This document shows, in pieces, positions 5,367 to 64,000 of a DNA stretch of 64,000 nucleotides. Made by a program: the position numbers and the translations under genes. Below the pieces are notes generated by a model. The model did no database searches. It saw only the letters and a program-made list of their open reading frames with translations, and was not told where the DNA came from. This DNA comes from Verrucomicrobiota bacterium (lineage in GTDB: Bacteria > Verrucomicrobiota > Kiritimatiellia > JAKQHR01): positions 5,613 through 69,612 of the forward strand of contig JAKQHR010000070.1 in assembly GCA_029557905.1 (NCBI GenBank). Reading direction: 5' to 3'. Numbering within the stretch: position 1 is the first letter of the stretch; every line of letters begins with the position of its first letter.

Positions 5367-5798
5367 GTGACAATAATGTTGTTTAAATATATGGCATCAC
5401 CTAGTCTTGGACTGATGAAATTTACAGCCCTTGCTGGCGGTCTGATGATCATGCTGGCCTCCGGTTGCGCCACACGGGGTCCCCGGAGCATACTCCCGCC
5501 GCCGCTGATCACCTATGACGGCCAGGGAAGGATTCTGCGTCAGGTGCAGTATAATCCCGACCACAGCGTGAACACCGTTAAAGCGTATCAGTATCCTGAC
5601 GGCGGGGTGACGCTTGAGACCGTCACTGTCTATGACAGCACCAACGGCTGGACCGTGACTGAAACCTACAACATGACGGACAGCGCCGTCGGGCTCAAAA
5701 ACGTCAAACAGTACGATGCCGGCGGCAACCTGCTCAGCGACCGGAATGCTCTCGTCAATCCCGGCAGCCGTTCCGTCAGAATCAACAATAGCCCGTGA
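5367..5798 (+). CDS. Small secreted lipoprotein, paralog A (unknown function)
   Basis: Signal peptide plus lipobox (MLASGCA). True start may be the ATG at 5415 (MKFTALAGG). Shares motifs with the ORF at 6009-6407 (YDGQGRILRQV..., GWTVTE..., NPGSRSVRI). Confidence 0.5.
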   Translation: MTIMLFKYMASPSLGLMKFTALAGGLMIMLASGCATRGPRSILPPPLITYDGQGRILRQVQYNPDHSVNTVKAYQYPDGGVTLETVTVYDSTNGWTVTETYNMTDSAVGLKNVKQYDAGGNLLSDRNALVNPGSRSVRINNSP

Positions 5799-19674: not shown

Positions 19675-19750
19675 CACAAAGCCCCGACGGGGAGAAACTG
19701 CAAATAGAGCGGGATGCAGTTTGGGGTGCGTTTCGCGGGGAGGTTGTGTC

Positions 19751-22463: not shown

Positions 22464-22556
22464 TTCAAAAGTTCCAATCATTGGAAGTTTCTGCGCGAAA
22501 AGTTCCAATGATTGGAAGTTTTTTTGCAAAAAGTTCCAGCCATTGGAAGTTTTGAA
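22464..22556. repeat. Array of 3 near-palindromic units (AAAGTTCCAAT-SA-TTGGAAGTTTTT), 31-bp period, ending 13 nt before the glycogen synthase ATG
   Basis: GTTCC cores at 22471, 22502 and 22533. Inverted repeat TTCCAAT/ATTGGAA around each core. Second, similar array at 43941-44030. Confidence 0.8.
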
Positions 22557-22568
22557 AGGGGTCGAGAC

Positions 22569-24395
22569 ATGAGTGCGAAAGCGCCACACGACAAGAATTC
22601 GTCATCGGTTGCGGAAAATCTGCGGCCGCTTCTTTTTGAGGCGGCATGGGAAGTCTGCCAGAAAATCGGGGGCATTTATACCGTGATTCGAAGCAAGGTC
22701 CCGGAGATCATGTCCACCTGGGGGCAGCGTTACTGCCTGCTGGGCCCCTATAATCCCGAGGTATCGCCGCTGGAATTCGAGGAAACAGAACTGGACGGCC
22801 CTCTCGCCCCGGTGATCGCCAAAATGCGCGAAAAGGGGTTCGTGGTGCATACCGGCTACTGGCTGGTGACCGGCCGGCCGCGAGTGATCCTGTTTGAATA
22901 CAAGCAGTTTGAATCGCGCCTGCCGGAAATCCGCAAGATGATGCAGGACCATCACGGCATTCCCGTGGCGCCGGAGGACAGCCTCACCAGCGAGGTTGCG
23001 CTGTTCGGCTGGGTGCTGACGGAGTTCTACACGATGCTGAACGACCTCAAGTCGCTCAAGAATCCTGTTATTGCGCATTTCCATGAGTGGATGTCGGCCA
23101 CGGCCATTCCCGAGCTGCGCCGCCGCGGCAACCGCGCAGGCATTGTTTTCACCACGCACGCGACGATGCTCGGACGCTACCTTGCGATGAACAACCCTGA
23201 GTTCTACACCCACATGACCGGCATCGACTGGCAGGCGCAGTCCCATCATTTCAACATCATGGGCCCTGTCATGATCGAGCGTGCCGCCGCGCACGGGGCG
23301 CATGTCTTCACGACGGTCAGCAAGGTGACCGGCCGCGAGTGCGAGGCGCTGCTGGACCGCGCGCCGGACGTGCTGCTCCCGAACGGCCTGAACCTGCGCC
23401 GCTTCGTGGCGATGCACGAATTCCAGAACCTTCACCGCAGCTACAAGGAGAAGATCCACCAGTTCGTTATGGCGCACTTCTTCCCCAGCTACACGTTCGA
23501 TCTCGACAACACGCTGTATTTCTTCACCGCCGGCCGCTACGAATACCGCAACAAGGGCTTCGACATGACCCTCGAGGCGATGGCCCGCCTGAATTACCGC
23601 ATCAAGCTCAGCGGCCTCAACCGCACCGTCGTGTTTTTCCTGATCACGCGGCAGGCCTACAAGTCGGCCAGCGCCGAAGTGTTCCGCCGCCAGGCGATGC
23701 TCGAGGAAATGCACGGCGCGTGCGAATCCATCAAGGATTCGCTGGGAAGCAGGCTTCTGATGGCGGCGGCAAAGGGACATATTCCCGAATACGAAACACT
23801 GGTGGACGAGACATCCCGCATGAGGCTGCGCCGCATCATGCACGCGTGGCCGTCCAGCGTCCTGCCCCCGTTTGTGACCCATGACCTTGTGAACGATGAC
23901 GAGGTGCTGCAGAAAATCCGGGCCTGCAAACTGATTAACCGGCCCGATGATCCCGTGAAGGTGATCTACTACCCTGAATTTGTTTCCACCAGCGACGGCC
24001 TCCTCGGCATTGAATACGACAACTTCGTGCGCGGCTGCCATCTGGGAATATTCCCGAGCTATTATGAGCCGTGGGGTTATACCCCGCTCGAGTGCGTGGC
24101 CTGCGGTGTGCCCGCCGTCACCAGCGACCTGAGCGGCTTTGGAAGCTATCTCAACCGCTGCATGCCGGACTGGGCCGAGCGCGGGCTTTATGTGGCCCCG
24201 CGCCGCGATAAAACCGAAGATGAATCCGTCAACGAGCTTACGGGCTGGCTCTACAATTTCGCACAGATGGACCGCCGTGAACGCATATCTCTCCGCAACA
24301 AGGTGGAGCGCTCCTCGGATGAGTTCGACTGGCACAATCTGGGCAGGAACTACACCGAGGCCTATGAAACAGTCTGCCGGCGAGCGGGGTTTTGA
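22569..24395 (+). CDS. Glycogen synthase, eukaryotic-type (GT3 family)
   Basis: N-terminus LFEAAWEVCQKIGGIYTVIRSK (GT3 hallmark). Length about 610 aa. C-terminal EPWGYTPLEC. The six-frame start at 22512 lies inside the repeat array, so the start was moved to the ATG at 22569. Confidence 0.65.
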   Translation: MSAKAPHDKNSSSVAENLRPLLFEAAWEVCQKIGGIYTVIRSKVPEIMSTWGQRYCLLGPYNPEVSPLEFEETELDGPLAPVIAKMREKGFVVHTGYWLVTGRPRVILFEYKQFESRLPEIRKMMQDHHGIPVAPEDSLTSEVALFGWVLTEFYTMLNDLKSLKNPVIAHFHEWMSATAIPELRRRGNRAGIVFTTHATMLGRYLAMNNPEFYTHMTGIDWQAQSHHFNIMGPVMIERAAAHGAHVFTTVSKVTGRECEALLDRAPDVLLPNGLNLRRFVAMHEFQNLHRSYKEKIHQFVMAHFFPSYTFDLDNTLYFFTAGRYEYRNKGFDMTLEAMARLNYRIKLSGLNRTVVFFLITRQAYKSASAEVFRRQAMLEEMHGACESIKDSLGSRLLMAAAKGHIPEYETLVDETSRMRLRRIMHAWPSSVLPPFVTHDLVNDDEVLQKIRACKLINRPDDPVKVIYYPEFVSTSDGLLGIEYDNFVRGCHLGIFPSYYEPWGYTPLECVACGVPAVTSDLSGFGSYLNRCMPDWAERGLYVAPRRDKTEDESVNELTGWLYNFAQMDRRERISLRNKVERSSDEFDWHNLGRNYTEAYETVCRRAGF

Positions 24396-42147: not shown

Positions 42148-43112
42148 GTGGCGGTGCCGAGCTTGCCCACTACAACACCCGCGGCAAAATTGGCCAGTTC
42201 GGCGGCTTCGCGATGAGTAGCGCCTGCCGCCAGTGCCAGCACTGTGGCGGCAACCACAGTATCGCCTGCGCCGCTCACGTCGAACACTTCCTGTGCGCGC
42301 GTGGGAATATGAACGGTTCTGCCCTTTTTCGGCATCATCAGCATTCCGAGACTCCCCAGCGTGATCACAAGAAATTCCGGCGACCAGGACTTGAGCAGGC
42401 GCTGGCCGGCCTGCAGCAGGTTGGCGTCCTTCAGCGGACTTCCGGATACGGGGGTTTCCTTCATGCCCGCGCCCATAAACGCCTCGCGGTGATTCGGCAT
42501 GGCCACGGTGATGCCGTGGACATTCAGGTCGCAGTTGTCTTTTGGATCAAAACCGACGGGAATGCCCTTTTTCCCCGCCGCCTCCAGCACCACATCAACC
42601 ACGGCCTGCCGGACCACGCCTTTGCCATAGTCCTCGATAATGACGCCCGTGGAGCGACGGATTTCTCTGCGGAGCTTTTCCGCAAACAAGTCGAAATCAG
42701 CATTTTTGTAGTCGGGTTCAGCGTCCCAGTCCACGCGGCACACCTGCTGATGTTCGGCAATGATGCGGGTTTTGACCGTTGTACAGCTGCCGGGCACGGC
42801 GAGCACGCCGTCCACTCCAACGCGGCCTTTCGAAAGCACCCCTCGCAGTTCCGCGGCCGCCGGGTCGTCGCCTGCAAACCCGCTCACGGCGCTGCGGCCC
42901 CCCAGCGACTGAATATTCCAGGCCACGTTGCTGGCGCCGCCCGGCATATTGCTTTCGCTCACGACGCGCACCACGGGAACCGGGGCTTCCGGGGAGATTC
43001 GACTCACCGATCCATAAATGAAGCGGTCGAGCATCAAATCCCCGACCACAAGAATCCGCTGTTTTCCAAATGAAGCAATCAGCTTCCTGGCCCTACTGAC
43101 TGAGAGCGACAT
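42102..43112 (-). CDS. rfaE: PfkB-family sugar kinase, RfaE/HldE domain-I-like (heptose 7-phosphate kinase)
   Basis: ILVVGDLMLDRF ... DVSGAGDTVVA PfkB motifs. Adjacent to kdsB. Confidence 0.6.
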   Translation of the reverse strand: MSLSVSRARKLIASFGKQRILVVGDLMLDRFIYGSVSRISPEAPVPVVRVVSESNMPGGASNVAWNIQSLGGRSAVSGFAGDDPAAAELRGVLSKGRVGVDGVLAVPGSCTTVKTRIIAEHQQVCRVDWDAEPDYKNADFDLFAEKLRREIRRSTGVIIEDYGKGVVRQAVVDVVLEAAGKKGIPVGFDPKDNCDLNVHGITVAMPNHREAFMGAGMKETPVSGSPLKDANLLQAGQRLLKSWSPEFLVITLGSLGMLMMPKKGRTVHIPTRAQEVFDVSGAGDTVVAATVLALAAGATHREAAELANFAAGVVVGKLGTATCSASELLKSVRAGT

Positions 43113-43926
43113 CCTGCGCCTCCTCTTCCTCACGTTCTTTCGCATCCGGGATTCGTATAATCATGTTCTCGCCCGAGCTTCGCACCTCGGCCAGCAGCAG
43201 ATGAACGCTGGCCACGGGCACTTTTGCCTGCATCTTCGTCATCAGGCGGCTGTCATCATCCGATATCCACATCCACATCCGGCCTTTTCGGACAAACAGC
43301 CCATCGAACTTGGCGACCGGCTCAAGCCGGATGCTGCGGATGCGGCTGTCATCGGCGATTTTCACGTCTTCAATCTTCTGGACATCCAGCTGCAGTTCGT
43401 AAAGCTTTTCGTCCGAAATCACCTCAAACCGGCTTGTGCTTCCCGGGACGAAATCCAGCGCGCGGGAGAAATACATGAATGAAATCACATCGCGGCTGTC
43501 CGGGCCGATCTCAAAAACTTTTTTACTGTCGCGGCCCGCCCGCTGCATGACGGCCTGCCCTTTTTCGTGATCGTAGTCGGTGACCTCATTGGCGTGGTAC
43601 CGGCCTTCGTTGACCTGCTTGGAGTACCGCACCGGGAGAAAGGTTTGCGGATCAATGAAGCACTCATGGATGTCATTCACCGGGTAAATTTTGCTGAGCA
43701 CTTTTCCGGTTACCACGCGGAAACGAACGCTGAGAAGCCGGCGGCCGTCCAATTCGGCCCATTCCGTGCGCACCCGGGCCTCGCCGACGGGGATCTTTCC
43801 CCAGTAAATGTTGTAGACCAGGTACTCTCCCAGCGGGAAATTGAATTCGACGGCCGGAACGCCCTGCGGCAGCATCAGAACCAGACCGCCCATAAGCAGG
43901 AACCACCTTTTCCAAAAAGAAGTCAT
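43093..43926 (-). CDS. DUF3108-family secreted protein
   Basis: Signal peptide MTSFWKRWFLLMGGLVLMLP. The six-frame start at 44001 runs into the repeat array, so the internal ATG at 43926 is preferred. Confidence 0.45.
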   Translation of the reverse strand: MTSFWKRWFLLMGGLVLMLPQGVPAVEFNFPLGEYLVYNIYWGKIPVGEARVRTEWAELDGRRLLSVRFRVVTGKVLSKIYPVNDIHECFIDPQTFLPVRYSKQVNEGRYHANEVTDYDHEKGQAVMQRAGRDSKKVFEIGPDSRDVISFMYFSRALDFVPGSTSRFEVISDEKLYELQLDVQKIEDVKIADDSRIRSIRLEPVAKFDGLFVRKGRMWMWISDDDSRLMTKMQAKVPVASVHLLLAEVRSSGENMIIRIPDAKEREEEEAQDVALSQ

Positions 43927-43940
43927 GCGGCAGAATCTAG

Positions 43941-44030
43941 CGTTTTTTCCAATGATTGGAAGTTTTTTCGGGAAAAGTTCCAATGATTGGAAGTTTTTCA
44001 AGCGAAAGTTCCAATGGTTGGAACTTTTTA
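43941..44030. repeat. Second array of 3 near-palindromic TTCCAAT-N2-ATTGGAA units, 31-bp period, 15-18 nt upstream of the DUF3108/rfaE/kdsB operon start
   Basis: TTCC cores at 43947, 43978 and 44009. Unit is about 85-90% identical to the array at 22464-22556. Confidence 0.8.
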
Positions 44031-45170
44031 CGGCCGGACCAGCCGGCCCATGAAGAGAATCGCGCCGGTCTGCCGGTCACGAATGATGTAAATGAACGGA
44101 TGGTCGGCGCGAAAGACCGGCTGGCGTCTTGCTGCGGTTTTGACCATGACAACCGCCGTGGCCGCGGCCGCTTCGGTGCCCTCCTCATTCACCTCGACCA
44201 GCGCGGAATGGATCACATCCGAGATGAAGAGTTCCGGCTCGCCGGTGATGCCGCTGAAATCGGCCCGGGCTGAGAACGCGATACCCATGCCCATTTCAGA
44301 GAGGACTTCCTTCAGGCCGGCGTTCTGCTGCGCGGTGAAGCGAGGGATGCTGACGTCCACTTGTGTTTTTTTCAGGTTGTCAATGCACTGCTTCAGCAAA
44401 GTCTCGTCCAGCTTCTGTTCCAGATCGCTGATCCCGTCCCGTTCGCGCGGGAGCAGAAGCAGCATGGCGACGCGCTCGCCGATGTACGGCATTTCCAGCG
44501 CCTGGAAACTGGCGGCATCGGCATAAAGAAACTCGCCGTTCTGCTTCATCATCGGGACTTTCACCGGCGCTGATCCTGAATGAAAAAGTTCTTCGCGCGT
44601 GTCAGTCTCAGCAAAAGCCTTCGCCCATTTCCCCTTGAACCAGATTGTGTTGGTGAGAACCAGCCGCGCAAGAGCATTGAGCGCCCCGGCCGGGAGAAGC
44701 TCCCTGATCCGGCCGGCCGTGGCCAGGCCGATCCAGCTGTTGATTGTCTGCCGGGCCGCTTCGGCATCCGCCTTGAAGTCCACGGGCTGGATGTCGGCAT
44801 CGAACACCTGCTGCAGCGCATTTTCATAGACCTCCCGAATATAGAAACCCTCCTGCGGCCACATGCGGTTGGATATCTGCATCCGCGGGCCGCCGAACGA
44901 TGATATTTCGCGCAGAGACCTGATCCGGGCTGTCATCTGCGCATCGTACTCCGCGGGATCGGCCGGGACACCGAGGGTGGCGGCCATGACCGAGGCGGTT
45001 TCGGCGCGCGCACCCTTGAAGGCCATGCCCAGGGCGGTGCTAATACTGTGGGGCGAGCACGCCACATTTCCCTCCGTTGCGGCGAGCCGGTGATAGAGCT
45101 TGAGCGCGAAAGCGCTATCGTCCCCTCGGACAGAGATGGCAAACAAAAGAAGTAGAATCAGTTTTTTCAT
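44028..45170 (-). CDS. Serpin (serine protease inhibitor), secreted
   Basis: Signal peptide. Reactive-centre-loop hinge GTEAAAATAVV and C-terminal FRADHPFIYIIRD. Confidence 0.85.
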   Translation of the reverse strand: MKKLILLLLFAISVRGDDSAFALKLYHRLAATEGNVACSPHSISTALGMAFKGARAETASVMAATLGVPADPAEYDAQMTARIRSLREISSFGGPRMQISNRMWPQEGFYIREVYENALQQVFDADIQPVDFKADAEAARQTINSWIGLATAGRIRELLPAGALNALARLVLTNTIWFKGKWAKAFAETDTREELFHSGSAPVKVPMMKQNGEFLYADAASFQALEMPYIGERVAMLLLLPRERDGISDLEQKLDETLLKQCIDNLKKTQVDVSIPRFTAQQNAGLKEVLSEMGMGIAFSARADFSGITGEPELFISDVIHSALVEVNEEGTEAAAATAVVMVKTAARRQPVFRADHPFIYIIRDRQTGAILFMGRLVRP

Positions 45171-45177
45171 AATCACC

Positions 45178-45498
45178 TCAATAATAAACGGCCAGCCAGA
45201 TGGTATGCTGAGACTCATCGGTGCGCGCCACACGGTGCCGGCAGCGGGCAGGAATGTTAACATAGTCCCCCGGCCGGAGTTCGACCGGTTCAGTCCGTCC
45301 TTCTACTTCCAGCGTGGCGGAGCCCTGAATCAGGATCACCCATTCAGGCTGGTCCTGGTCGTACCAGAAATCCTCCGGGGAGTTGTGTCCCTCGGAAACA
45401 ATGCGCTCGATCCGCACGGGTCCGGAATGCACAAGCGTGTTGATGATCTCCATTTCCAGGCCGGAAGTGATGTTGTCAAAGATGCTGCGCCGGTTCAT
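45178..45498 (-). CDS. Cupin-domain protein
   Basis: Cupin_2-like GSATLEVEG...LRPGDYVNIPARCRHRV. About 106 aa from the internal ATG. Confidence 0.5.
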   Translation of the reverse strand: MNRRSIFDNITSGLEMEIINTLVHSGPVRIERIVSEGHNSPEDFWYDQDQPEWVILIQGSATLEVEGRTEPVELRPGDYVNIPARCRHRVARTDESQHTIWLAVYY

Positions 45499-53761: not shown

Positions 53762-55180
53762 ATGGCAGACAATCTCAAGGTGCAGCTTGCCGTGGTCGGC
53801 GCCGGCCCGGCTGGATATCCCGCCGCGTTCCGTGCGGCGGACCTGGGCATGAGCGTTGCCCTGATTGACCAGAGATCCGCTCTCGGGGGAACCTGCCTGC
53901 ATGAAGGCTGTATTCCCTCCAAAGCCCTTCTGCATGCGGCCCTGATCAAGAATGAGGCCAAAAGCGCATCGGCATTCGGGCTTTATTTCACGGAACCCCG
54001 GCTGGACATTGATGCCCTTCGCATATGGAAAAATGGACTCGTCGGCCAGCTTTCCGGGGGGCTCGGCATGCTCTGCAAACAGCGGGCCGTGCAGTTCATT
54101 CAGGGCCGCGCGCGCTTCACTGGTCCAAATTCAATCCTTGTGGAACAGGCCGGCGAAGAGCGGTCAGTTGAATTCGACAGGGCGATCATCGCCACCGGCT
54201 CGCGGCCTCTTGAAATTCCCGGACTAAAGACGGAATCCGACCGTATTATGACGGCGCGCGGCGCGCTGGAGCTCAATCGCGTTCCGGAATCCATGCTGGT
54301 CATCGGCGGCGGATACATCGGCCTTGAACTGGGGTCCGTTTACGCCTCGCTGGGCGCGCGTGTCAGCGTGGCAGAAATGACGGATGGACTCCTTCCCGGA
54401 GCCGACCGCGACCTTGTGCGCATCCTCAGCCGCAGCCTGGAACCCCGATTTGAGGCCCTCATGCTTCAAACGCGCGTGGCAGGCCTAACTGAAGATAACG
54501 CAGGCCTGCGCGCAAAACTCATTTCTGCGCAGGGTGACACTGTTGAAAAAAGCTTCAACAGTATCCTTGTGGCCGCCGGACGAAGGCCGGCCACAGAGGA
54601 TCTCGGCCTGGAAAACACAAAGGTTAAACTGGATGACAAGGGCTTCATCATAACCGATGAACGCCGCCAAACCGGGGAGCCCTCCATTTTTGCGGCCGGA
54701 GACGCGGCCGGCCAGCCCATGCTGGCGCACAAGGCCATGCATGAGGCCCTCGCGACAGCCGAGTACATTGCGACCGGCAAGGGCGGCCCGTTTACGCCCC
54801 GCGCCATTCCTGCCGTGGTGTTCACCGATCCCGAAATTGCATGGTGCGGCCTGACCGAAGATCAGGCCCGCGCGGAGAATCAGAACATCAAAGTCGGCCG
54901 CTTCCCCTGGAGCGCCTCGGGCCGGGCCAAGACGCTTCATCGGGCTGACGGTATGACCAAAGTCATCGCGAATGCTGAAAGCGGAGCGATCCTGGGCCTT
55001 GCCATCGCGGGGCCCGGAGCAGGCGATCTTATTGCCGAGGGTGTGCTGGCCGTTGAATCAGGTGTCACCGTCGAAACGCTCAGTCGGGTCATTCACCCCC
55101 ACCCCACGTTGTCAGAAACCGTTATGGAAGCCGCGGAAGCCCTGCTGGGCCGAAGTGTTCATGCCGCCCGGCCGCGATAA
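53762..55180 (+). CDS. lpdA: Dihydrolipoyl dehydrogenase
   Basis: FAD motif VVGAGPAGY. Redox disulfide GGTCLHEGCIPSK. NAD motif VIGGGYIGLE. C-terminal HPHPTLSE. Confidence 0.9.
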   Translation: MADNLKVQLAVVGAGPAGYPAAFRAADLGMSVALIDQRSALGGTCLHEGCIPSKALLHAALIKNEAKSASAFGLYFTEPRLDIDALRIWKNGLVGQLSGGLGMLCKQRAVQFIQGRARFTGPNSILVEQAGEERSVEFDRAIIATGSRPLEIPGLKTESDRIMTARGALELNRVPESMLVIGGGYIGLELGSVYASLGARVSVAEMTDGLLPGADRDLVRILSRSLEPRFEALMLQTRVAGLTEDNAGLRAKLISAQGDTVEKSFNSILVAAGRRPATEDLGLENTKVKLDDKGFIITDERRQTGEPSIFAAGDAAGQPMLAHKAMHEALATAEYIATGKGGPFTPRAIPAVVFTDPEIAWCGLTEDQARAENQNIKVGRFPWSASGRAKTLHRADGMTKVIANAESGAILGLAIAGPGAGDLIAEGVLAVESGVTVETLSRVIHPHPTLSETVMEAAEALLGRSVHAARPR

Positions 55181-55185
55181 AGAAA

Positions 55186-55216
55186 AAGCCGGCCGCGTGA
55201 CACGGCCGGCCTTTCC
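55186..55216. terminator. Bidirectional intrinsic terminator between convergent lpdA and the 1525-aa coiled-coil gene
   Basis: AAAAAGCCGGCCGcgtgacaCGGCCGGCCTTTCC: 8-bp GC stem with an A-tract on one side and T-rich on the other. Confidence 0.6.
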
Positions 55217-55229
55217 GGAAAGAAATCCG

Positions 55230-58200
55230 CTATTCCCTGTCGGCATCCTGAAGGATGGTTTCCAGGCGTGAGTTCAACTGCATAATGCGCTGCTTGAGTT
55301 CCTCCGATGTAACCTCATCAACCCCCTGCCCGGCGCGCTCCAGCTTGCGAAGCTCGCGGCTCATTCTTACGCTTTCACGGGAGAGTTCATCCACCTGATT
55401 GCGGACTTCTCCCAGACGGGTAATGGTCTGTTCCGACTCTTCCAGCCTCTTCTGCAGCTTCTCGTTTTCCTTCTGGAGCACACCGATACGGTCCGAGGCC
55501 CGTGCGGCCTGACCGTTGAGATCCGAAATCTTCGCTTCAGACTGGCTCAGCAGAGTCTGCAGTTCAGCGGCGCGATCCGCCACCTTCTCCGCATTTTCAA
55601 GGGCATTGGATGTTTCGAGCAGCCTTGCCTGGAGGGTTCGCGCTTCAGCTCTAGCCGTCTCAGCCGCACCGGAAGCGGCCTGTTCAGACTCACGAAGCGC
55701 GGCAATCTCCGCATCACGCCGGCCCAGTTCCGACTGCAGCGATGTGTTGCTGCGGCGCAGATCATCGGCCGCCGCATTGGCTTCCGTGGCGGCGGCCTGC
55801 CACTGCGCGGCATCCCGGGTCAGTCCAGTCATCTGCTCTCTCAGACTGTCAATCCGGGCACGCAGTTCGCCGGCTTCCTCAACCTCGCGCGACAGCTCCC
55901 AAAGCTCGCTTTTCAGCTCCTTGATGCGCGCCTCCTGCTGCGCGCTGTTGTCCGCTGCGGTCTTCAGGGCATTGTTGGCCTCCGTAAGGTTCGCCACAGT
56001 GGCATTTGCGGCATCCAAAGACTCCGCGGATTCGGCCAGGCGGCTTCTCAGTTCTCCGGTCTGGGCCGTCAGCCGGTCGCGTTCCGCCGACAGGGCCGTA
56101 TTCAGCTCATTGAGCCTGGCCATGCGGTCTTCAAACGCGCTCCTGTTCTGCTGAAGAGACGCAATCTCTGCAACCGCTTCCGCATGTTTTCCGCGGGTCT
56201 CTGCCAGCTCAGTATTTGCCCTGTCCAGCGCTGCCTTGAATTTCTGCATTTCGGCGGCGAGGCTGTCTTTCTTTCCGGCGGCGGCGGCTTCCGCCTTCTC
56301 AAGCAGCGCAATCCGTGTATTGGCCGCGCGCAGCGCCTCATTGGCCTGTTTCAGAGAGGCTTCAAGCTGTCCTGCGCGAGACTCGAGATTCTTCACTGTT
56401 TCTTCAGCCCGGTCCGTCTGCGCCGCCCTGCGCTCCGCATCCAGAAGCCGGCTCTTAACCTCCTGCACCTCTTTTTTCACCGCGGCATAATCTTCCAGGG
56501 ACGCCTGCAGTTCAACCATCCGGGAAGCCAGTCCGGAGCGCTCGATGGACAGCTGGCGCACCTGCTCCTCCAGCTTCTTCACATTGTCGGCAGCAAGCTT
56601 CTCCGCCTCGATCAGAGTGGCCTTCTCCGCTTCATAAGCCGCCAGTTTCTCCCGGAGGCCTGCGCAGTCCTTCTCCAGAAGATCCTTTGATTTCGCGAGT
56701 TCATTCAGCTGATCCCGAAGCGGGAGAAGTTCCGCCTCGCGGGCAGCGGCATCGGCCAGGCTTTTTTCCAGTTTCGCTTTTTCACTGTCCATGGACATCA
56801 GCCGGGCATCCTTCTGTTTGACAACCTCCTGCACGGCCTCGATTTCCTTCGAACAGCGGCGAATTTCCTTCTCGGCATCCATCACCTGCGCAAAGAGTTC
56901 TTCTTTCTTGACCAGCAGGGCATCCCGCTCCGTCAGCAGAGAGGCCATCTCTTTTTCCCTGTCTGCCAGCCGGCGAGTCGCATCCTTTAAGGCGGATTCC
57001 AGATCCTGTTTAGTTTTCGAGAGATCCGTCTGCGCGCTCTGGAGCGCGGCAAGCTCCACGCTCAGCTTGTCCCTTTCCTGCCGGAGCGCTTCAAGCGATT
57101 TGGTCGCATTCGACGCTTCAGAACGGATCGCCAGCAGGGCCTTTGAACTTTCCGCAAGCTGCACCCCCAGACCGGCGGCATCGGCCGTCACGCGGTTTTT
57201 CTCTTCGGTCAGCCGCGTGACCGCAGCGGTCAGATTCCGGACATCGGCAGAGAGACTATCCTTTTCCTTCTGCGCCTGAACCAGATCATCCTGTGTCGCC
57301 TTAATCTGATCCCGGGCAGCCTTCAAATCCCGCTGGGATTTGCTGAAATCCGCCTGCAGTTTGCTCATGGCGGCTTCCTTTGCCTCCGACTGCTTCTTAA
57401 TTCCCGCCAGTTCGCGGGTCAGCGCATCGTTGCGGCTCTTTTCAGACTTCAGCGCATCCGCAGCAGCGGATGCTTCAGCCTGAAGCGCAGACAGAGCGGT
57501 TTCCATTTCCGCTTTGGCTCCGGCAAGCTGTGTCGCGTTCTTTTCCAGATCGGAGGAAAGACTGCGGACCTGCGCCAGATCTTTCTGGGTCTGCGTGAGT
57601 TCGGCTGCCAGTGTGTCCCTGCTCTGCTTCAGCGCATCCAGTTCGCCCGCCAGCGCATCTCTTTTGGCGGCTGTTTCGGCCTGTGCCTTCTGCAGGGCAT
57701 CCAGCGCGTTCTGCGACACCTTCAAATCTTTCGCCAGTGCCTCAGCCTTCTGGCGTGCCGGCTTGATGGCGCCCTCTGCCTCAACCAGCTTCTTCTCGGT
57801 TTTTTCAAGGGCCGAGGAAAGGCTCGATTTCTCCTTCCCGAGCGCGGCAATTTCTTTGCGCGCGGCCTTCAAATCATCCTGAGCGACGGCAAGTTCAGCC
57901 AGCCGGGCGTCCATGTCAGCCAGTTTGGCCGCAAGGGCTGTCTTTTCCTTTTCAAGTTCCGACGCGCGGGCCTCTTCGGACTTCAACCGGGATACCGTCT
58001 GCTCGAGCTCAGAGGCACGAGTTCCAGCCTCCGCGCGAGCCGCCGAAACCTGTTCCCCCAGCTGTTCGATCTGCCCTTCCAGCGAACTTTTTGAATCAGC
58101 AAGGCTCTTGACCTGCGATATGACCATATCCCGTTCGGCCGTCAGTGCGGCAACCGTATCTGCAAGCGCCTTGTTTGCATTCTCCAGTTCATTTGCGCGC

Positions 58201-59807
58201 TCGCCCTTCTTTTCTGCCGCGGAGAGATCTTTTGCAAGTTTCTGATTCTGCTGTCCCAGAGCCCTGATTTCCTGCTGCAGCCCGGACATGGCGGCAGACT
58301 GATCCTGTGTGAGCTTTTCCAGTTCGGCGGCCTGAATCCCAAGCTCTTTTGCATCCGCGAGCTGCTTTGAAAGGTCTTTGTTGGCGGATTTCAGCCCGGC
58401 AATCTGATCTTCCAGCGCCTTGAGGCTTTCCACTTTTTTCTGCAAAGAAGCAATCTGTCCGGTCAGAGACTTGTTCGTCTTCAGCGCCGCATCCAGTTCC
58501 TTTCTGACAGCGGCAATCCGGTCATCCATTTCCTTCACAGAGGCTTCTGCTGCGGCTTTGGCTGCATCAATTGCGGCTTTTTCGGCCGCCGTTTTCTCCA
58601 AAGCGGAGTTCAGTTCCGCCTTGTCCTTTTCCAGCTGCTCACGGGCTTTTACCAGCCCCGAAAGTTCCTGCTGGCGGGACAGCAATTCCTCCTTAAGCGC
58701 CGCCGCCTGCGCAGACAGCTCTCCAGCGGTCTTTTCCAGCGCGGTTCGGGCATCGGTCAGCGTTTTCACCTCCGCCCGGGAAGAAGACAGCTGCGCATTC
58801 AGGTCCTTGTTCGAGGACTTCAGCCCCGAAATTTCATCCTTCAGTTCCGGAAGGGTCGTCAGCTTCTTTTCCAGCGCGGCCCGGGCATCAGCCAGATCCT
58901 TTGACTCCGCCTTCGATGCAGAGAGCTGCGCGTTCAGATCCTTGTTGGAAGATTTCAGCTTCTCGATTTCCTCCTTAAGGCCCGGGACTGCGGCAAGCTG
59001 CTTATCCAAATCAGCCACCTGTTCTGCAAGCGCCAGCTTCTCCTTTGCCGCGCGCTGGATTTCGCCGTCGCGGTCCTTCACGTTCGAAGCCAGGACCCCC
59101 AGCTGTTCTTTCAGAGAATCCATTTCCCCCTGCATTCCTGCCATCGCCTGATCCCGCTGCGCCAGGGCGGCCTGGGATTTTTCCACGTCCTGCGCCAGCG
59201 CCTTCAACGACTTCTCCAGCAAGGACTTTTCCTTCCCCACAGCCTTGACCTGGTCCTCAAGGGCATCCACCGTATTCAACCGGGCCTGCATTTTTTCAAC
59301 ACTGGCCTGCAGCGTGTCTCTTTCTTTGGAGAGCACCGATATGCTTTTAGTTTTCTGCTTGAGGTCTTCCGACATATCCGACAGCTTTTTGTCCAGCGCC
59401 TGATTCTGTCCGGTCATATCCGCAATTTTCTTTTCTGACGCCTCAATCTGAGCCTGCAGATCCTTCAGGCGGCCCGAAGCCGCCTTTGCCGCGTCCCTCA
59501 TGCTTGCGCGCCGCTCACGGGCCGCCTGTTCCTCGCGGGCCACGGCCGCCTGCTTTTCCTTTTCAAGGCGGTCGAGGGCGGCCTGCATATCCGCCGCCTG
59601 TGCTTTCAGGGAGGCATGCTCCGCCGACAGGTTTTGAAGCTTAGTCCTCGCATCGGAAAGCTCCTGCTGGAGCTGCTGAACCTTGCGCACCGCCGCACTG
59701 GCCACCTCTCCCACCTGCGGGAAAGATTCTTCGGCCGCGCGCAGAAAACCCGGGCATGCCAGCAGCATCGCGGCGATCAGATATACATGTGTCTTAAGCA
59801 TCTTCAT
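55230..59807 (-). CDS. Giant secreted coiled-coil protein (1525 aa), no ATPase motifs
   Basis: Signal peptide MKMLKTHVYLIAAMLLACPGFLRAAEE. The rest is A/E/K/L/Q-rich heptad-like sequence with internal repeats. No Walker A seen, so not SMC. Confidence 0.7.
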   Translation of the reverse strand: MKMLKTHVYLIAAMLLACPGFLRAAEESFPQVGEVASAAVRKVQQLQQELSDARTKLQNLSAEHASLKAQAADMQAALDRLEKEKQAAVAREEQAARERRASMRDAAKAASGRLKDLQAQIEASEKKIADMTGQNQALDKKLSDMSEDLKQKTKSISVLSKERDTLQASVEKMQARLNTVDALEDQVKAVGKEKSLLEKSLKALAQDVEKSQAALAQRDQAMAGMQGEMDSLKEQLGVLASNVKDRDGEIQRAAKEKLALAEQVADLDKQLAAVPGLKEEIEKLKSSNKDLNAQLSASKAESKDLADARAALEKKLTTLPELKDEISGLKSSNKDLNAQLSSSRAEVKTLTDARTALEKTAGELSAQAAALKEELLSRQQELSGLVKAREQLEKDKAELNSALEKTAAEKAAIDAAKAAAEASVKEMDDRIAAVRKELDAALKTNKSLTGQIASLQKKVESLKALEDQIAGLKSANKDLSKQLADAKELGIQAAELEKLTQDQSAAMSGLQQEIRALGQQNQKLAKDLSAAEKKGERANELENANKALADTVAALTAERDMVISQVKSLADSKSSLEGQIEQLGEQVSAARAEAGTRASELEQTVSRLKSEEARASELEKEKTALAAKLADMDARLAELAVAQDDLKAARKEIAALGKEKSSLSSALEKTEKKLVEAEGAIKPARQKAEALAKDLKVSQNALDALQKAQAETAAKRDALAGELDALKQSRDTLAAELTQTQKDLAQVRSLSSDLEKNATQLAGAKAEMETALSALQAEASAAADALKSEKSRNDALTRELAGIKKQSEAKEAAMSKLQADFSKSQRDLKAARDQIKATQDDLVQAQKEKDSLSADVRNLTAAVTRLTEEKNRVTADAAGLGVQLAESSKALLAIRSEASNATKSLEALRQERDKLSVELAALQSAQTDLSKTKQDLESALKDATRRLADREKEMASLLTERDALLVKKEELFAQVMDAEKEIRRCSKEIEAVQEVVKQKDARLMSMDSEKAKLEKSLADAAAREAELLPLRDQLNELAKSKDLLEKDCAGLREKLAAYEAEKATLIEAEKLAADNVKKLEEQVRQLSIERSGLASRMVELQASLEDYAAVKKEVQEVKSRLLDAERRAAQTDRAEETVKNLESRAGQLEASLKQANEALRAANTRIALLEKAEAAAAGKKDSLAAEMQKFKAALDRANTELAETRGKHAEAVAEIASLQQNRSAFEDRMARLNELNTALSAERDRLTAQTGELRSRLAESAESLDAANATVANLTEANNALKTAADNSAQQEARIKELKSELWELSREVEEAGELRARIDSLREQMTGLTRDAAQWQAAATEANAAADDLRRSNTSLQSELGRRDAEIAALRESEQAASGAAETARAEARTLQARLLETSNALENAEKVADRAAELQTLLSQSEAKISDLNGQAARASDRIGVLQKENEKLQKRLEESEQTITRLGEVRNQVDELSRESVRMSRELRKLERAGQGVDEVTSEELKQRIMQLNSRLETILQDADRE

Positions 59808-59837
59808 AATAAACCTCTCAACATCTTTCCTGCGCGG

Positions 59838-62800
59838 CTAGTTGGCCAGTTCCTGCAGGACTTTTGTGGCCTCGCGAAGTTCCGCTTCCAGGAGTTTGAC
59901 TTTTTCAACCAGCTCGGTGCGTTCGGATGCTGTCTTTTCCAGCTTCCCGGCGGTTTCTGCCAGTTGTTTCTGCAGCGCCGCATTCTCTTCTCCGGCCTTC
60001 TTCTGAAGTTTCTCTCCGGCGGCGGCCGCTTTCTTCAGCGCGGCGATTTCAGCGGACAGGGCTTTTGTTTCGTCACTCAGCGCGGCAGCCTGCCTGGCGG
60101 CGTCCGCATGGCGCTGCTGGGCAATTTTCAGCTCGTCCGCCATGGCCCTGGATTTTGCCACGGCTTCTTCGCCGCGCTTGACGGAGCCTTCCGATTTCTT
60201 GAGCGCTTTGCCAAGCTCATCCACCTGGCTCTGCATGTCTGCAATCTGCTGGCGGAGAATCCCCGCCGTTTTATCTCCATCGGCCTTTGCAGCGGCGAGG
60301 GCGTCTGCGGCGGCGGCCGCAGAAGCCTTGACTGCCGCAATTTCATCGGACAGGCTCTTGTTTTGAGCCTCCAATTTATTCCGTTCACCGGAAACAGCCT
60401 TGTTTTCTGCCATCAGGCTGTTGAGGCGCGATTCAAGCTCCTTGACCGCACCGGCCGAAGAGGCGGCGGCTTCCTGCATGGAGGTCTGTTCATTCAGCAG
60501 CGAGGCAATGCGCTTCTCCATTTGGGACGCGGCCTTCTGAAGTTCGCCCGCCTGTTTCTCAAGAACCTTGTTTCGGTCGCGCAGAGGGGCTGTGGCCTGA
60601 TACTGCTCTTCCAGTTTGGCCAGCTGCGACTGCAGTGCGGCCTTTTCATCCGAAACCGTTTTCAGCTGAGAACCAAGTTTTGTCGCCTCGGCTTTCAGGC
60701 GTTCTGCATCAGAAGCAGCGTCCTGCGAAGCTTTCACCGACGCGGCGGTTTCAGCCTGCAGAGCCTCAACAGTCTTCCGGAGGGCTTTGGCTTCCGCCTC
60801 CGCCTTTTCTATCTTCCCGGAGAGTCCCTTCTGGAGCGCATCGCGGGCACGGGCATTGCCTTCGGCCCGCAGTTCGGCGCTCTGCACGCGATCCTGCATT
60901 TCTTTGATTCGAGGCTCCACCGAATTCAAATCTTTGGTCAGCTTTTCAATCTGCGCGTTTCTGCCTTCAAGGTCCTTTGTGAGCGCGGTGATCTTCTGCT
61001 CAGCCTCGGCGGCCTGCCGGCCCGCCGTGTCTTCGCGGGCCTTGATTTCCTGCTGGAGAGCCTCCACGCGCTTGCGGTCGCCCTCACCCGCCTTGCGGAT
61101 ATCCTGCACCGACTTCTCAAAGCCGGCGGACCGGGCCTTTTCCTGGTCCAGTTTTGCGCGCAAATCACTGATTTGGGCTGTCAGTTCCGTATCCAGCGCG
61201 GCACGCTCCTGCTTCACCTGCTTGAGTTCCGCCGTCAGGCTTGCCGCCATATCCGAATTTTCGCGGGCATTGCGCTCTGCCTCCGCGGTCTTTGCCTGCA
61301 GATCGGCGGCCTTTTTCAGCTCGGCCTGATACTGTTTCTCCACATCGGCCTTTTCTGACTGCACCTGTTTGAGCTGCTCTTCAAGCGCAGAAGATGCCGC
61401 GGCCTTCCGCTCGGCCTCGGTGTATTTTTCCTGGAGAGAATCCCTCTCCATGCGGGCAGCTTCCAGGTCGGCCGCAAGCTTCTTTGCGGACTCGGCCTGT
61501 GGGAGCAGCGTCACCACCTGGGCTTTCAGCCGGTCGCGCTCCTGTTCCGCCTGGGCCAGCGCATCAGCCGCCTTTTTCAAATCAGATTTGACTGCCGCAG
61601 TTTCAGCCGCAGTATCAGCGGAACCCTGGGCCATTTTCAGATAGTCGCTCTTAACTTCTTCCAGCTGGCGGCGCATATCATCACGCTGGCTCAGCAGCGC
61701 CTTGCGTTCGGTTTCCGCCGCGGACAGCCGCTTGTCCATCGCATTGGAAGCCATGATCAGCCCGGTCATCTCATCATTCAGCCGGGCTTCCTTGTCCTCA
61801 GCCGCTTTCACGCGGGCCAGCAGATCCTTTTCCTTCCTCGCGTATTCAGACTGCGCGGATGCCTCGAATTTTTTCTGCCGCATACTCAAGTCTTCTGCCT
61901 GTTTCTGAAGTTCCTTGTCCTTTTTGGCAAGCTGTGCAGTCAAATCGGAAATCTGCGACTTCAACTCATCCGCTTTTTTCTGCTCTTCGCTCAGTGCCCT
62001 GGCGCTGCGCGACAGGGCTTCTTTTTCACGCTTTTCCGCATCGGCAAGCGCCTGAGCGCTTCGGGCCTGGGCCTCTTTTTCAACTCTCTCCATATCGGCC
62101 AGCCGGGCGGAAAGCTGATCTTTTTCCGTCACGAGCTTTTTGATGTCGGCATCGGCCTTGCGCAGAAGATCTTCGGCCACCGCCACCTTGGATTCCAGAG
62201 CCGGAATCGCCGTCGCGGCCTGCTGGGCCTGATTCAGCTGGTCCTCAGCCGCTCTGGCACGGGCCTCCGTTTTCCGCAGTTCCACTTCAAGCATCCCGGC
62301 ATCGCCCCGGACTTTCTTAAGCTCGTTGGCCACCTTGGTCAGATTGGCCCGCCATTTGGCGTTCACTTCCTCAATTTGTCCGGCAAGACCGTCCCGTTCG
62401 CTCTGGACAGCAGCCAGATCATTGCGGATCATCTGATTTTCCTGCTTCAGCGCATCCACGTCGCGTCCCCTCGCCTGCAGCTGCGCGTCCAGATCAGTGA
62501 CCTTCATGTTCAGCTGTTCTTCGCCGAGCATGGACCCCCGCAGGGCGCTCATTTCCGCATGGGCTTCGGCCAGCTTCTCCTGAATTTTCTGGTTGTCATC
62601 GGTCAGGGCCAGGATCTTCTGCCTCAACTGCTGGTCGCCGCCGGCCGAAACGCTGCTCTTCGCGCGAACGTCCTGCTCCAGCTGGGCGATCCGCTTCTGA
62701 AGCTCTTTGTTCTGGGCCGAGACGGCCTCATGCTGCGCGCGCCACTTCGCGCCATCATCCGCGACGGGAACAGGTGCGCTGTTGATCTGAGCCTGCAGAG

Positions 62801-63281
62801 AATCAATCTGCTCGCGCAGGTCCTCATTCTGCTCCAGCAGTTCTGAATACTTGGTCCGATAGAAATCCACGGACTGTGCGGAGGGAGCCGCCGCCGCACG
62901 GGCGGCCGGAGCCGGGGCTTTTGCAGGCGCCTTTTCTGCCGGGGCAGGAGCAGGTTTCGCCGCCGAAGCCGGCGCCGAGGCAATCTGCGGGCGCAGGGCA
63001 TCCATCTGGTCACGACAGTACGTCAGCCGGTACTGGACGATGTCCTTCTGCCAGTCGGGATGCGATTCGCTCAGCTCCTTATACAGGTTGTACGAGCGCT
63101 CATAGGCCTCGAACGCCGCGACCAGATCGTTGTTGCCCTTTGCCCTGTCGCCCGCCACGGTGGCGGAATAGGCGTTCAGCTGAAGCTGCTGTGCGGACTG
63201 TGCAGGCTGCGCCTGTGCAGGCACGCCGGCCGCAAGCAGGGCCAGCAGCAGTCCAAATGCGATAAATGTGTTTCTGTTCAT
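59838..63281 (-). CDS. Giant secreted coiled-coil protein (1147 aa), paralog-like partner of 55230-59807
   Basis: Signal peptide MNRNTFIAFGLLLALLAAGVPAQA. ATG at 63281 chosen over the six-frame start at 63548, which overlaps the TPR gene. Nearly continuous coiled-coil. 30-nt gap to the downstream gene. Confidence 0.65.
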   Translation of the reverse strand: MNRNTFIAFGLLLALLAAGVPAQAQPAQSAQQLQLNAYSATVAGDRAKGNNDLVAAFEAYERSYNLYKELSESHPDWQKDIVQYRLTYCRDQMDALRPQIASAPASAAKPAPAPAEKAPAKAPAPAARAAAAPSAQSVDFYRTKYSELLEQNEDLREQIDSLQAQINSAPVPVADDGAKWRAQHEAVSAQNKELQKRIAQLEQDVRAKSSVSAGGDQQLRQKILALTDDNQKIQEKLAEAHAEMSALRGSMLGEEQLNMKVTDLDAQLQARGRDVDALKQENQMIRNDLAAVQSERDGLAGQIEEVNAKWRANLTKVANELKKVRGDAGMLEVELRKTEARARAAEDQLNQAQQAATAIPALESKVAVAEDLLRKADADIKKLVTEKDQLSARLADMERVEKEAQARSAQALADAEKREKEALSRSARALSEEQKKADELKSQISDLTAQLAKKDKELQKQAEDLSMRQKKFEASAQSEYARKEKDLLARVKAAEDKEARLNDEMTGLIMASNAMDKRLSAAETERKALLSQRDDMRRQLEEVKSDYLKMAQGSADTAAETAAVKSDLKKAADALAQAEQERDRLKAQVVTLLPQAESAKKLAADLEAARMERDSLQEKYTEAERKAAASSALEEQLKQVQSEKADVEKQYQAELKKAADLQAKTAEAERNARENSDMAASLTAELKQVKQERAALDTELTAQISDLRAKLDQEKARSAGFEKSVQDIRKAGEGDRKRVEALQQEIKAREDTAGRQAAEAEQKITALTKDLEGRNAQIEKLTKDLNSVEPRIKEMQDRVQSAELRAEGNARARDALQKGLSGKIEKAEAEAKALRKTVEALQAETAASVKASQDAASDAERLKAEATKLGSQLKTVSDEKAALQSQLAKLEEQYQATAPLRDRNKVLEKQAGELQKAASQMEKRIASLLNEQTSMQEAAASSAGAVKELESRLNSLMAENKAVSGERNKLEAQNKSLSDEIAAVKASAAAAADALAAAKADGDKTAGILRQQIADMQSQVDELGKALKKSEGSVKRGEEAVAKSRAMADELKIAQQRHADAARQAAALSDETKALSAEIAALKKAAAAGEKLQKKAGEENAALQKQLAETAGKLEKTASERTELVEKVKLLEAELREATKVLQELAN

Positions 63282-63294
63282 TGGTTCGACTCCT

Positions 63295-64000
63295 CTATGG
63301 ATAGAGTATTTTTTCAAGATCCTGATTTCTTTCGCTGCCCAGACTGATTGCACTCTCATAATATTTTCGGGCGGACGTGATGTCCGAAGGACTCGATGTG
63401 GCCAGCACAACGGCCAGATTGAACTGTGCCTCCGCATGCCGGGGATCGAGCTCCACGGCCTGCCTGAATTCCTTTGCGGCCTCCTGGAGTTTCTGGCGGG
63501 AATGATGAACGATTCCCATGTAATTATGAAGCTGCGCGCTCTTTGCATCCAGCAGAAGCCCGCGGGACAGATACCGGTCCGCCTTCTCCAGATCGTTGTT
63601 GCGCCAGCTGATCATCCCCTTGAGGCCCATCGCTTCGGCATAGGTCGGATGGATATCCAGCAGCTGGTTCAGAATGCTTTCGGCATTTTTGAAATCCCAG
63701 ATGTTGTAGTAGCAGGAAGCCAGCCCCATCATTGCGCGCGCGTTGGAGGGATTCTGTTCCAGCAGAACTGAAAACACGGCCAGCGCCTCTTCCACACGAC
63801 CTTCCCCCAGAAGCTTCTCGCCATTGGCCATGAGCGCATCCTCATCGCGCGCCGCCTCCGCCTTCTCCTCGACAGGTACCGGCTGGATTTTCTCCTCTCT
63901 CACAGCCGGGGCCGGGAACGGTTCGGCGGCCGCCGTGCGAACAACCGTGGAGGGTTTCTCCGCGGGGGGCTCTTTCCGCGAGGGCTTCACCGCCTCTGGA
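63295..64000 (-). CDS. TPR-repeat protein; 5' end lies beyond the window
   Basis: Multiple TPR units (AEAQFNLAVVL, YAEAMGLKGMISW, ALAVFSVLLEQNPSNARAMMGLA). Ends 13 nt upstream of the coiled-coil gene start. Confidence 0.6.
   Translation of the reverse strand, partial: PEAVKPSRKEPPAEKPSTVVRTAAAEPFPAPAVREEKIQPVPVEEKAEAARDEDALMANGEKLLGEGRVEEALAVFSVLLEQNPSNARAMMGLASCYYNIWDFKNAESILNQLLDIHPTYAEAMGLKGMISWRNNDLEKADRYLSRGLLLDAKSAQLHNYMGIVHHSRQKLQEAAKEFRQAVELDPRHAEAQFNLAVVLATSSPSDITSARKYYESAISLGSERNQDLEKILYP

Follow-up and report, generated by a model that had tools for sequence, protein, structure and literature searches.

The 64,000-nucleotide stretch of DNA analyzed here (positions 5,613 to 69,612 of contig JAKQHR010000070.1, assembly GCA_029557905.1, from a Verrucomicrobiota bacterium of the Kiritimatiellia; referred to below as the window) ends in an operon for three proteins: a tetratricopeptide repeat (TPR) protein, here called protein A, and two giant coiled-coil proteins, CC1 and CC2. 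On sequence grounds, we regard it as established that these are three Sec-exported, nonenzymatic proteins and that their operon belongs to an undescribed family found across the Planctomycetes-Verrucomicrobia-Chlamydiae (PVC) bacteria. A first-pass annotation had proposed that the two giants are exported, non-ATPase rods co-transcribed with a TPR protein and that they are candidates for a periplasmic or extracellular filament system; the first part of this proposal stands, the filaments are putative, no described family claims the two proteins, and the TPR protein is predicted to be exported as well. That annotation lacked the signal peptide and coiled coil of protein A itself, the N-terminal domain and linker of CC1, and the finding that the locus is not a one-off but an expanded and rearranged version of a gene pair, A-B, present in Kiritimatiellia, Lentisphaerae, and Verrucomicrobia. 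Sequence comparison demonstrates the operon structure, the export signals, the coiled-coil nature of the giants, their lack of ATPase heads, the relationships within the family, and the conservation of the three genes as a unit.

The features of the locus are as follows (positions are those of the window):
63295..64000, minus strand: gene A (TPR), 3' part; the stop is at 63295 and the gene extends past the window end
63282..63294, minus strand: A-CC1 spacer of 13 nt with a Shine-Dalgarno-like AGAGGAG, read from the sequence
59838..63281, minus strand: open reading frame (ORF) of CC1, the B-type protein, 1147 aa
63210..63281, minus strand: predicted CC1 signal peptide, residues 1-24 (MNRNTFIAFGLLLALLAAGVPAQA/Q, the slash marking the cleavage site); site kept in L009, L010, and L005
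62982..63200, minus strand: CC1 N-domain, residues 28-100 (73 aa), a predicted three-helix TPR/MIT-like bundle (AlphaFold2 [AF2], predicted local distance difference test [pLDDT] 94.7)
62871..62981, minus strand: CC1 Pro/Ala-rich linker, residues 101-137 (ASAPASAAKPAPAPAEKAPAKAPAPAARAAAAPSAQS), placed by its proline positions
59841..62870, minus strand: CC1 rod, residues 138-1147 (~1010 aa), which starts with the family motif FYRTKYSELLEQNEDLREQ and is coil to the last residue
59808..59837, minus strand: CC1-CC2 spacer of 30 nt with a Shine-Dalgarno-like GAGAGG
55230..59807, minus strand: ORF of CC2, 1525 aa, ATG start
55233..55406, minus strand: CC2 C-terminal block, residues 1468-1525 (...SRESVRMSRELRKLERAGQGVDEVTSEELKQRIMQLNSRLE.ILQ)
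55176..55216, minus strand: intrinsic terminator 3' of CC2 (GC-rich hairpin, then a U tract), which the convergent lpd gene shares

The first-pass annotation had placed three codirectional genes with gaps of 13 and 30 nt between positions 55230 and 64000. Direct reading bore out the genes and the gaps, with a Shine-Dalgarno-like motif in each gap; the extent needed correction in that the TPR gene is cut by the window end, and the strand is minus. Of the 406 codons of gene A, 231 to 234 lie inside the window, and the complete gene (406 aa, L001:8767-9987; loci in other contigs carry L numbers throughout) was read from metagenomic contigs that encode an identical CC1. Its database entry is named "tetratricopeptide repeat protein." For CC1, the longest ORF extends to 63548 and overlaps gene A; because this longer frame runs into gene A, we prefer the MNRNT start, at which the signal peptide begins and which has the AGAGGAG motif 8 nt upstream.

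A, CC1, and CC2 form a single transcription unit, because the short gaps contain Shine-Dalgarno-like motifs, a strong terminator follows CC2, and the genes share a promoter-like element and 5' untranslated region (UTR). The terminator hairpin has a folding energy of -31.7 kcal/mol (z = -6.4), and 0 of 200 shuffled sequences folded equally well. Beyond the window end, gene A is preceded in four lineages (L001, L009, L005, and L010) by a promoter-like element, TTGCCT-N18-TATAAA, and its ~45-nt 5' UTR (AGACGGCTTAAATGTCTG...TAAGGAA.CAGGTGCCG; L001:8690-8766) is likewise kept in four. When the four loci are aligned, conservation of the element and the UTR exceeds that of the coding sequence, which hints at post-transcriptional control. 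Three copies of the palindrome AAAACTTCCAAnnnnTTGGAACTTT stand directly 5' of the promoter-like element (L001:8600-8700; also L009:1-45) and may form a regulator-binding array; L005 carries other short repeats at the matching position. Measured against two orthologous loci, the ratio of nonsynonymous to synonymous substitution rates (dN/dS) is 0.12 to 0.25 for all three genes, indicating that they are real genes under purifying selection.

Each of the three proteins begins with a Sec-type signal peptide consisting of 1 to 3 K/R residues, a 12-aa hydrophobic core (mean Kyte-Doolittle hydropathy of 2.0 to 2.8), and an AxA-type cleavage site. The signal peptides claimed earlier for both giants were thus confirmed and are kept in four orthologous sets, as is that of protein A (12 of 12 proteins, each with an AxA-type site). 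In CC2, the predicted signal peptide comprises residues 1-24 (LRA/AEE), and protein A is probably cleaved after residue 27 (VFA/Q). None of the 12 proteins has a further hydrophobic segment after residue 40. Since there is no such segment and there are no domain matches beyond coil and TPR, no second targeting signal was seen by hydrophobicity and Pfam/NCBIfam scans, which included no dedicated sorting-motif search. We considered and rejected a lipoprotein reading of the sequences LTGC in A and LLAC in CC2: neither cysteine is kept among the orthologs, in contrast to the AxA-type sites. L005 has Leu in place of Cys21 of A, and in L010 the context at this position (AGFC) is no lipobox; the cysteine of the CC2 signal peptide is missing in L010. 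Because the lipobox-like cysteines are not conserved, cleavage of all three proteins by signal peptidase I is the parsimonious prediction. Unlike its Kiritimatiellia orthologs, an A-type protein from Verrucomicrobia (L020:9434-10672) has a canonical lipobox (LALMAGC/K), and membrane anchoring of protein A may differ between lineages.

Both giants had been described as almost entirely coiled coil. This holds for CC2, which is coiled coil from residue ~30 through the final residue, while residues 25-137 of CC1 are instead a small globular domain and a Pro/Ala linker. A coiled-coil analysis of the kind that the first-pass annotation had proposed gave a clear result: 35 of 39 56-aa segments in CC1 and 51 of 53 in CC2 peak at a period of 3.4 to 3.7. 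After register assignment, 75 to 78% of a/d positions are hydrophobic, compared with 25% of the other positions and with 61 to 62% of a/d positions in shuffled sequences. In both rods, position d is 40 to 50% Leu and position a is L/A/I/V with some K, R, and N; because this pattern is typical of such packing, the coils are probably parallel and two-stranded. Each rod has only 14 to 15 breaks in register, most of them stutters or stammers (+3 or +4). Prolines 360, 594, 790, and 899 of CC1 and 275, 683, and 1029 of CC2 are kept in 4 of 4 orthologs, which suggests that they are fixed hinges. The C-terminal 40 aa of CC1 are conserved, and the C-terminal 58 residues of CC2, ~90% invariant among three lineages, are the most conserved stretch of the triad. 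With the coiled-coil rise of 0.1485 nm per residue, the calculated length of the extended rods is ~150 nm for CC1 and ~220 nm for CC2. Recent internal tandem duplication was rejected as an origin of the rods (self-BLAST gave no off-diagonal matches), as was close paralogy of CC1 and CC2, which share ~25% composition-level similarity (best match, 37 bits).

The N-domain of CC1 bears the family signature AY..L..AD.ARD.G....A...Y..AL..Y..L....PxWxPxIVxYRxxYC. Its best Foldseek matches are MIT domains and the TPR-like SRP68-RBD (TMq of 0.80 to 0.86); because their E values are at least 0.02, we take the modeled likeness to MIT and SRP68 as fold resemblance only. Pfam matches to TPR_2, SRP68, and MIT were all sub-threshold, and a PDB sequence search with the N-domain gave no significant match. 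Residues 102-135, in the linker, are modeled without secondary structure at a pLDDT of about 30. Protein A comprises, after its signal peptide, a coiled coil (residues ~40-160), a Pro/Glu/Ala-rich linker (~160-225), and about five canonical TPRs (228-400), and it ends in a conserved tail, ...ARKYYESAISLGSERNQDLEKILYP. The best PDB matches of its TPR domain are consensus TPR, OGT, PEX5, and MamA, which characterizes the predicted domain as a generic, canonical peptide-binding type.

The A-CC1-CC2 triad occurs in four Kiritimatiellia lineages, counting that of the window: L001-L004, L009, L005/L006, and L010/L018. The sizes of A, CC1, and CC2 are 409, 1144, and 1532 aa in L009; 410, 1437, and 1531 aa in L005; and 413, 1326, and 1453 aa in L010/L018. 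Identity to the window proteins, in the same order, is 81%, 77%, and 70% for L009 and 66%, 49%, and 48% for L005. Different genes flank the triad at these loci, and it therefore behaves as a unit. Conservation is far higher at the protein ends than in the rods; CC1 changes in length through indels, and the length of CC2 is almost constant.

Beyond these orthologs, an exhaustive phmmer search identified 323 representatives that match CC1 at an E value of 1e-3 or lower, nearly all over residues ~10-130 only, with a best E value of 4e-16 among family members. The N-domain alignment is gapless over 73 columns, and the N-domain of CC1 scores 89.3 bits (E of 3e-27) against a hidden Markov model (HMM) built from alignment A2, which contains the N-domain of CC1 itself. 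Family members of the B type share a plan: signal peptide, N-domain, Pro/Ala linker, a coil of variable length that opens with YRxRYxxLxxENxYLRxR, and a C-terminal TPR domain with a tail like that of protein A. CC1 has the signal peptide and the 73-aa N-domain with PxWxPxIVxYRxxYC, followed by the linker at 101-137 and then FYRTKYSELLEQNEDLREQ. It lacks the C-terminal A-type TPR domain (tail ...ARxxYxxxxxLG...D..LE..L.P), and the sole match to the TPR-domain HMM in the window is gene A. Among 149 representatives with an N-domain, the A-type TPR domain stands at the extreme C terminus in 78 and is missing in 71, some of which are fragments. The spacing from N-domain to TPR domain in the representatives is continuous between 20 and 769 aa; the CC1 coil, at ~1010 aa (1000 to 1300 aa in orthologs), is longer than the largest of these spacers.

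An ortholog of A lies directly upstream of the B-type gene in L013 (Lentisphaerae) and in L014, L020, L007, and L041 (Verrucomicrobia), and the named members of the family belong to Verrucomicrobiota and Lentisphaerae. Alignment A4, in which gene A aligns over its full length with the upstream genes of L013, L014, and L007, contains 64 invariant columns, among them AQ.H.Y.GIV and those of the C-terminal tail, and the closest nonorthologous matches of protein A include B-type proteins. A third, coil-only gene of the CC2 type was seen only in this Kiritimatiellia clade. Because the family plan with its C-terminal TPR domain and the upstream gene A recur across PVC lineages, the comparison identifies the window locus as a derived A-B pair, in which B has lost its TPR domain, the coil has grown to 1000 to 1300 aa, and CC2 has been added.

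The members carry the database labels "hypothetical," "TPR repeat protein," and "PilF"; neither the N-domain nor the family is covered by a Pfam or NCBIfam model, and we found no literature on the family. Scope differed among the searches. A genome scan with a narrower alignment (A3), using one strict pattern, gave 5 loci only, and a scan of metagenomes with A4 brought up generic TPR proteins for the most part, the informative loci being L018, L020, L037, and L041. A word-indexed homolog search with full-length CC1, which was swamped by coiled-coil words, gave nothing, and neither did one with the N-domain, a weak negative given that CC1 itself is absent from the collection. Neither CC1 nor CC2 is present as an exact sequence in a cluster collection of 15 billion proteins, even though contigs that encode the two are indexed; this collection may under-represent giant low-complexity proteins, which would weaken negative homology searches. 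Single-chain members of the family are located among housekeeping genes and have no conserved functional neighbors. The Akkermansia MUL1 proteins (Amuc_0543/0544) may be an A-B pair; in secondary papers, MUL1 is called only "Sus-like" or "periplasmic protein complexes."

With moderate confidence, we propose that A, CC1, and CC2 assemble in the periplasm, within a diderm envelope of the PVC type, and serve there as a structural scaffold or tether. In this proposal, CC1 and CC2 would be long rods that a few conserved proline hinges divide into segments, and their conserved ends would dock onto peptide-binding modules of the TPR type: the TPR domain of protein A, with its five repeats, and the three-helix head of CC1, which is TPR/MIT-like. 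The C-terminal block of CC2 would be a candidate docking element, and the Pro/Ala linkers would serve as flexible or wall-crossing spacers. We infer periplasmic residence, dimeric parallel packing, end docking, and a structural role from the features described above.

Several points weigh against this scaffold, chief among them that rods of 150 to 220 nm exceed the normal width of the periplasm 5- to 10-fold. This mismatch could be met by rods that lie along the membrane, by folding back at the hinges, or by an enlarged periplasm. Rod length varies widely across the family, which speaks against the rods being a precise ruler. The docking of rod ends onto TPR modules is a conjecture. The AF2 model of full-length CC1, helical over residues 136-1146 with short breaks and no strand, has a mean pLDDT of 58, at which its secondary structure alone is usable. 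Finally, the proteins may be secreted past the outer membrane; genes of the type II secretion system (T2SS) and type IV pilus (T4P) type lie near the locus in several genomes.

PVC bacteria have an enlarged periplasm and practice "selfish" glycan uptake. Very few bacteria are known to export structural proteins of the coiled-coil kind, and no protein scaffold is known for the PVC envelope. A broader, tentative idea, which we hold to be possible but rather doubtful, is that the A-B(-C) proteins form a PVC-specific periplasmic skeleton, in which struts of lineage-specific length are coupled end to end or to envelope layers by TPR-peptide docking and brace or organize an enlarged, glycan-storing periplasm, the Kiritimatiellia triad being its most elaborate form. 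A published source (PMC13174399) mentions that glycan accumulates in the periplasm of Verrucomicrobiota.

The gene neighborhoods offer weak, lineage-dependent clues to function. The neighbors of the operon are lpd, nadA, a radical SAM gene, and Memo/AMMECR1 genes. NadA, Lpd, GH31, and DinB, encoded nearby, fall into 90% clusters that carry Kiritimatiellia MAG names at NCBI. In the window lineage, three consecutive T2SSE genes (PilB/GspE-type ATPases), one T2SSF gene (PilC/GspF), and a small ORF without assignment lie from 3 to at least 9 kb upstream (L001:1-5471, outside the window), with the AMMECR1-Memo-radical SAM trio standing between them and the operon. In Verrucomicrobia, T2SSK (gspK) or PilM-like genes are found divergently upstream of A-B or of B alone (L007, L012, and L020). 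A glycosyltransferase C (GT-C) gene of the PMT_2 type is convergent and directly downstream of A-B in L013:3528-5465, L014:5676-7418, and L020:12040-13758, and rluD and lgt are downstream in L007, L011, and L012. None of these neighbors consistently accompanies the triad.

The first alternative to a periplasmic scaffold is that the rods cross the outer membrane, for example, through a T2SS, and form surface or extracellular fibrils that would build a coat or an adhesin layer; A would then act in the periplasm as a chaperone or pilotin-like factor. Rods of such length would suit the surface better than a 25-nm periplasm, and both the T2SSE/T2SSF genes of the window lineage and the gspK- and pilM-like genes adjoining A-B or B in three loci could point to a route. 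However, these neighbors are divergent or split off by unrelated genes, and T2SS genes are absent from the triad flanks in L005 and L010. As for attachment at the surface, the proteins have neither a hydrophobic segment after residue 40 nor a conserved lipobox to serve as an anchor, and Pfam and NCBIfam gave no match to a β-barrel or noncoil domain (PEP-CTERM and type IX secretion system [T9SS] signals were not searched specifically). Such fibrils would have an analog in the coiled-coil surface fibrils of other bacteria; we consider them unlikely.

The same neighbors would fit a second analogy, in which A and B/CC1 align or anchor a T2SS or T4P machine in the manner of the PilF/PilW/Tgl pilotins or the FimV hub, and the coils position the machine in the envelope. 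Protein A has sub-threshold NCBIfam matches to PilW, Tgl, and GltE, one family member is labeled "Tfp pilus assembly protein PilF" in IMG, and T2SSK/PilM-like genes adjoin three Verrucomicrobia loci, in addition to the T2SSE/F genes upstream in the window lineage. These TPR matches are generic and far under their cutoffs, though (52.3 against 154 bits for PilW), and A has no conserved lipobox, the defining feature of pilotins. The triad, moreover, moves among contexts without pilus genes, and single-chain members sit among housekeeping genes. An accessory role of this kind seems to us distinctly improbable.

We give very little credence to a third possibility, a partnership with periplasm-facing GT-C enzymes (PMT/ArnT-like) in which the TPRs would present substrates and the Pro/Ala/Ser-rich linkers would perhaps be glycosylated, as in GT-C-TPR fusions. 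The convergent orientation of the PMT_2-type genes in L013, L014, and L020 is no evidence of co-transcription, no such gene adjoins the triads of the window, L009, and L010 (the L005 flanks are largely unexamined in detail), and rods of 1000 to 1500 aa would be left unexplained. In L085, an ORF for a membrane protein that ends in a TPR array and weakly matches the N-domain HMM could be a GT-C-TPR fusion, judged by reading its sequence.

Finally, that these are cytoplasmic SMC/Rad50/MukB-like chromosome or defense proteins, the label that automated annotation would likely give, is almost certainly wrong: the matches to the SMC_prok_B, Rad50, LmuB, JetC, and SbcC models arise because of long heptad-repeat arms, are confined to the coil arms of the profiles, and fall far under the cutoffs (for the NCBIfam SMC and Rad50 models, at most 170 bits against 567 to 1087), and, as the first-pass annotation had argued in setting SMC and RecN aside for want of Walker A/B motifs, the 12 proteins contain no [AG]xxxxGK[ST] Walker A motif and no Pfam match to SMC_N or AAA_23, carry conserved N-terminal signal peptides, and, in CC1 and CC2, remain coiled coil to the last residue. 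The profile search that had been suggested as a check for ATPase heads thus found none. A defense-system or phage origin was also rejected, as PADLOC and PHROGs matches cover coil arms only; ASRP and tape-measure models likewise gave coil-arm matches only, far under their cutoffs.

The remaining genes of the window have ordinary housekeeping functions. Among them, the gene at 22512-24395 (plus strand) encodes a PF05693 Glycogen_syn protein (E of 1e-193), which we take to be a eukaryote-type glycogen synthase (glycosyltransferase family 3 [GT3]), unusual in a bacterium. A full-length serpin (PF00079, E of 7e-110) is encoded at 44028-45263 (minus strand), beside a DUF3108 protein at 43093-44001 (minus strand). 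Two further ORFs encode a 459-aa protein that consists almost wholly of ankyrin repeats (8009-9388, plus strand) and a protein of 915 aa in which three GEVED domains are the only ones recognized (19655-22402, plus strand).

What began as a single odd operon is now a definable and testable family with a diagnostic 73-aa N-domain, a partner gene, and coils of tens to more than 1000 residues, and its lineages include genetically tractable relatives. If the proteins are structural, A-B(-C) would be a new envelope cytoskeleton; if they are not, likely misannotations as "chromosome segregation/SMC" or "PilF" are still corrected.

Compared with known systems, CC1 and CC2 resemble SMC, Rad50, and MukB in their long heptad-repeat arms; they differ in lacking ATPase heads, hinge, zinc hook, and Walker A motif and in carrying signal peptides. 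Like crescentin, intermediate filament (IF)-like proteins, and SpiroCoCo proteins, they are coiled-coil-rich and putatively structural, and they weakly match Rod_CreS (PF19220, 36.9 bits against a cutoff of 100), Filament (PF00038, 26.5 against 40), and SpiroCoCo_C (70 against 125); crescentin, however, is cytoplasmic and has no signal peptide. They also differ from tethers of the Braun lipoprotein type, having no conserved lipobox and no C-terminal Lys (the C termini are ...LAN/LAQ and ...DRE/GQE/EKE). Protein A is set apart from PilF, PilW, and Tgl by its scores (52.3 against 154 bits for PilW; 40 against 225 for Tgl) and by a lipobox that is not conserved. Within the PVC B-type family, CC1 keeps the N-domain, the linker, the coil motif YRxxYxxLxxENxxLRxx, and the upstream gene A, whereas it lacks the C-terminal TPR domain and has a longer coil and an extra gene, CC2.

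For protein A, the closest likeness in plan is CpoB (YbgF) of the Tol-Pal system, which has the same order of signal peptide, coiled coil, linker, and C-terminal TPR domain and is, as predicted for A, periplasmic. Protein A nevertheless scores 30.1 bits against TIGR02795 (cutoff of 90.1), no tol-pal genes adjoin the operon, and protein A is ~150 aa longer, with a long Pro/Glu/Ala linker, five TPRs, and giant rods as partners. For the rods, the likeness is to CrvA/CrvB, the periplasmic curvature filaments of Vibrio cholerae, and is an analogy only: both are Sec exported, dominated by coiled coil, encoded by adjacent paralogous or partner genes, and a structural element of a diderm periplasm, a role that is proposed here. 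CC1 and CC2 are several times longer than CrvA/CrvB and come with a TPR partner and a TPR/MIT-like head, neither of which CrvA/CrvB are known to have; they belong to a PVC lineage rather than to Vibrionaceae, and their polymerization is putative. By analogy, CrvA/CrvB and CpoB are precedents for a system that combines exported structural coiled coils with a TPR protein.

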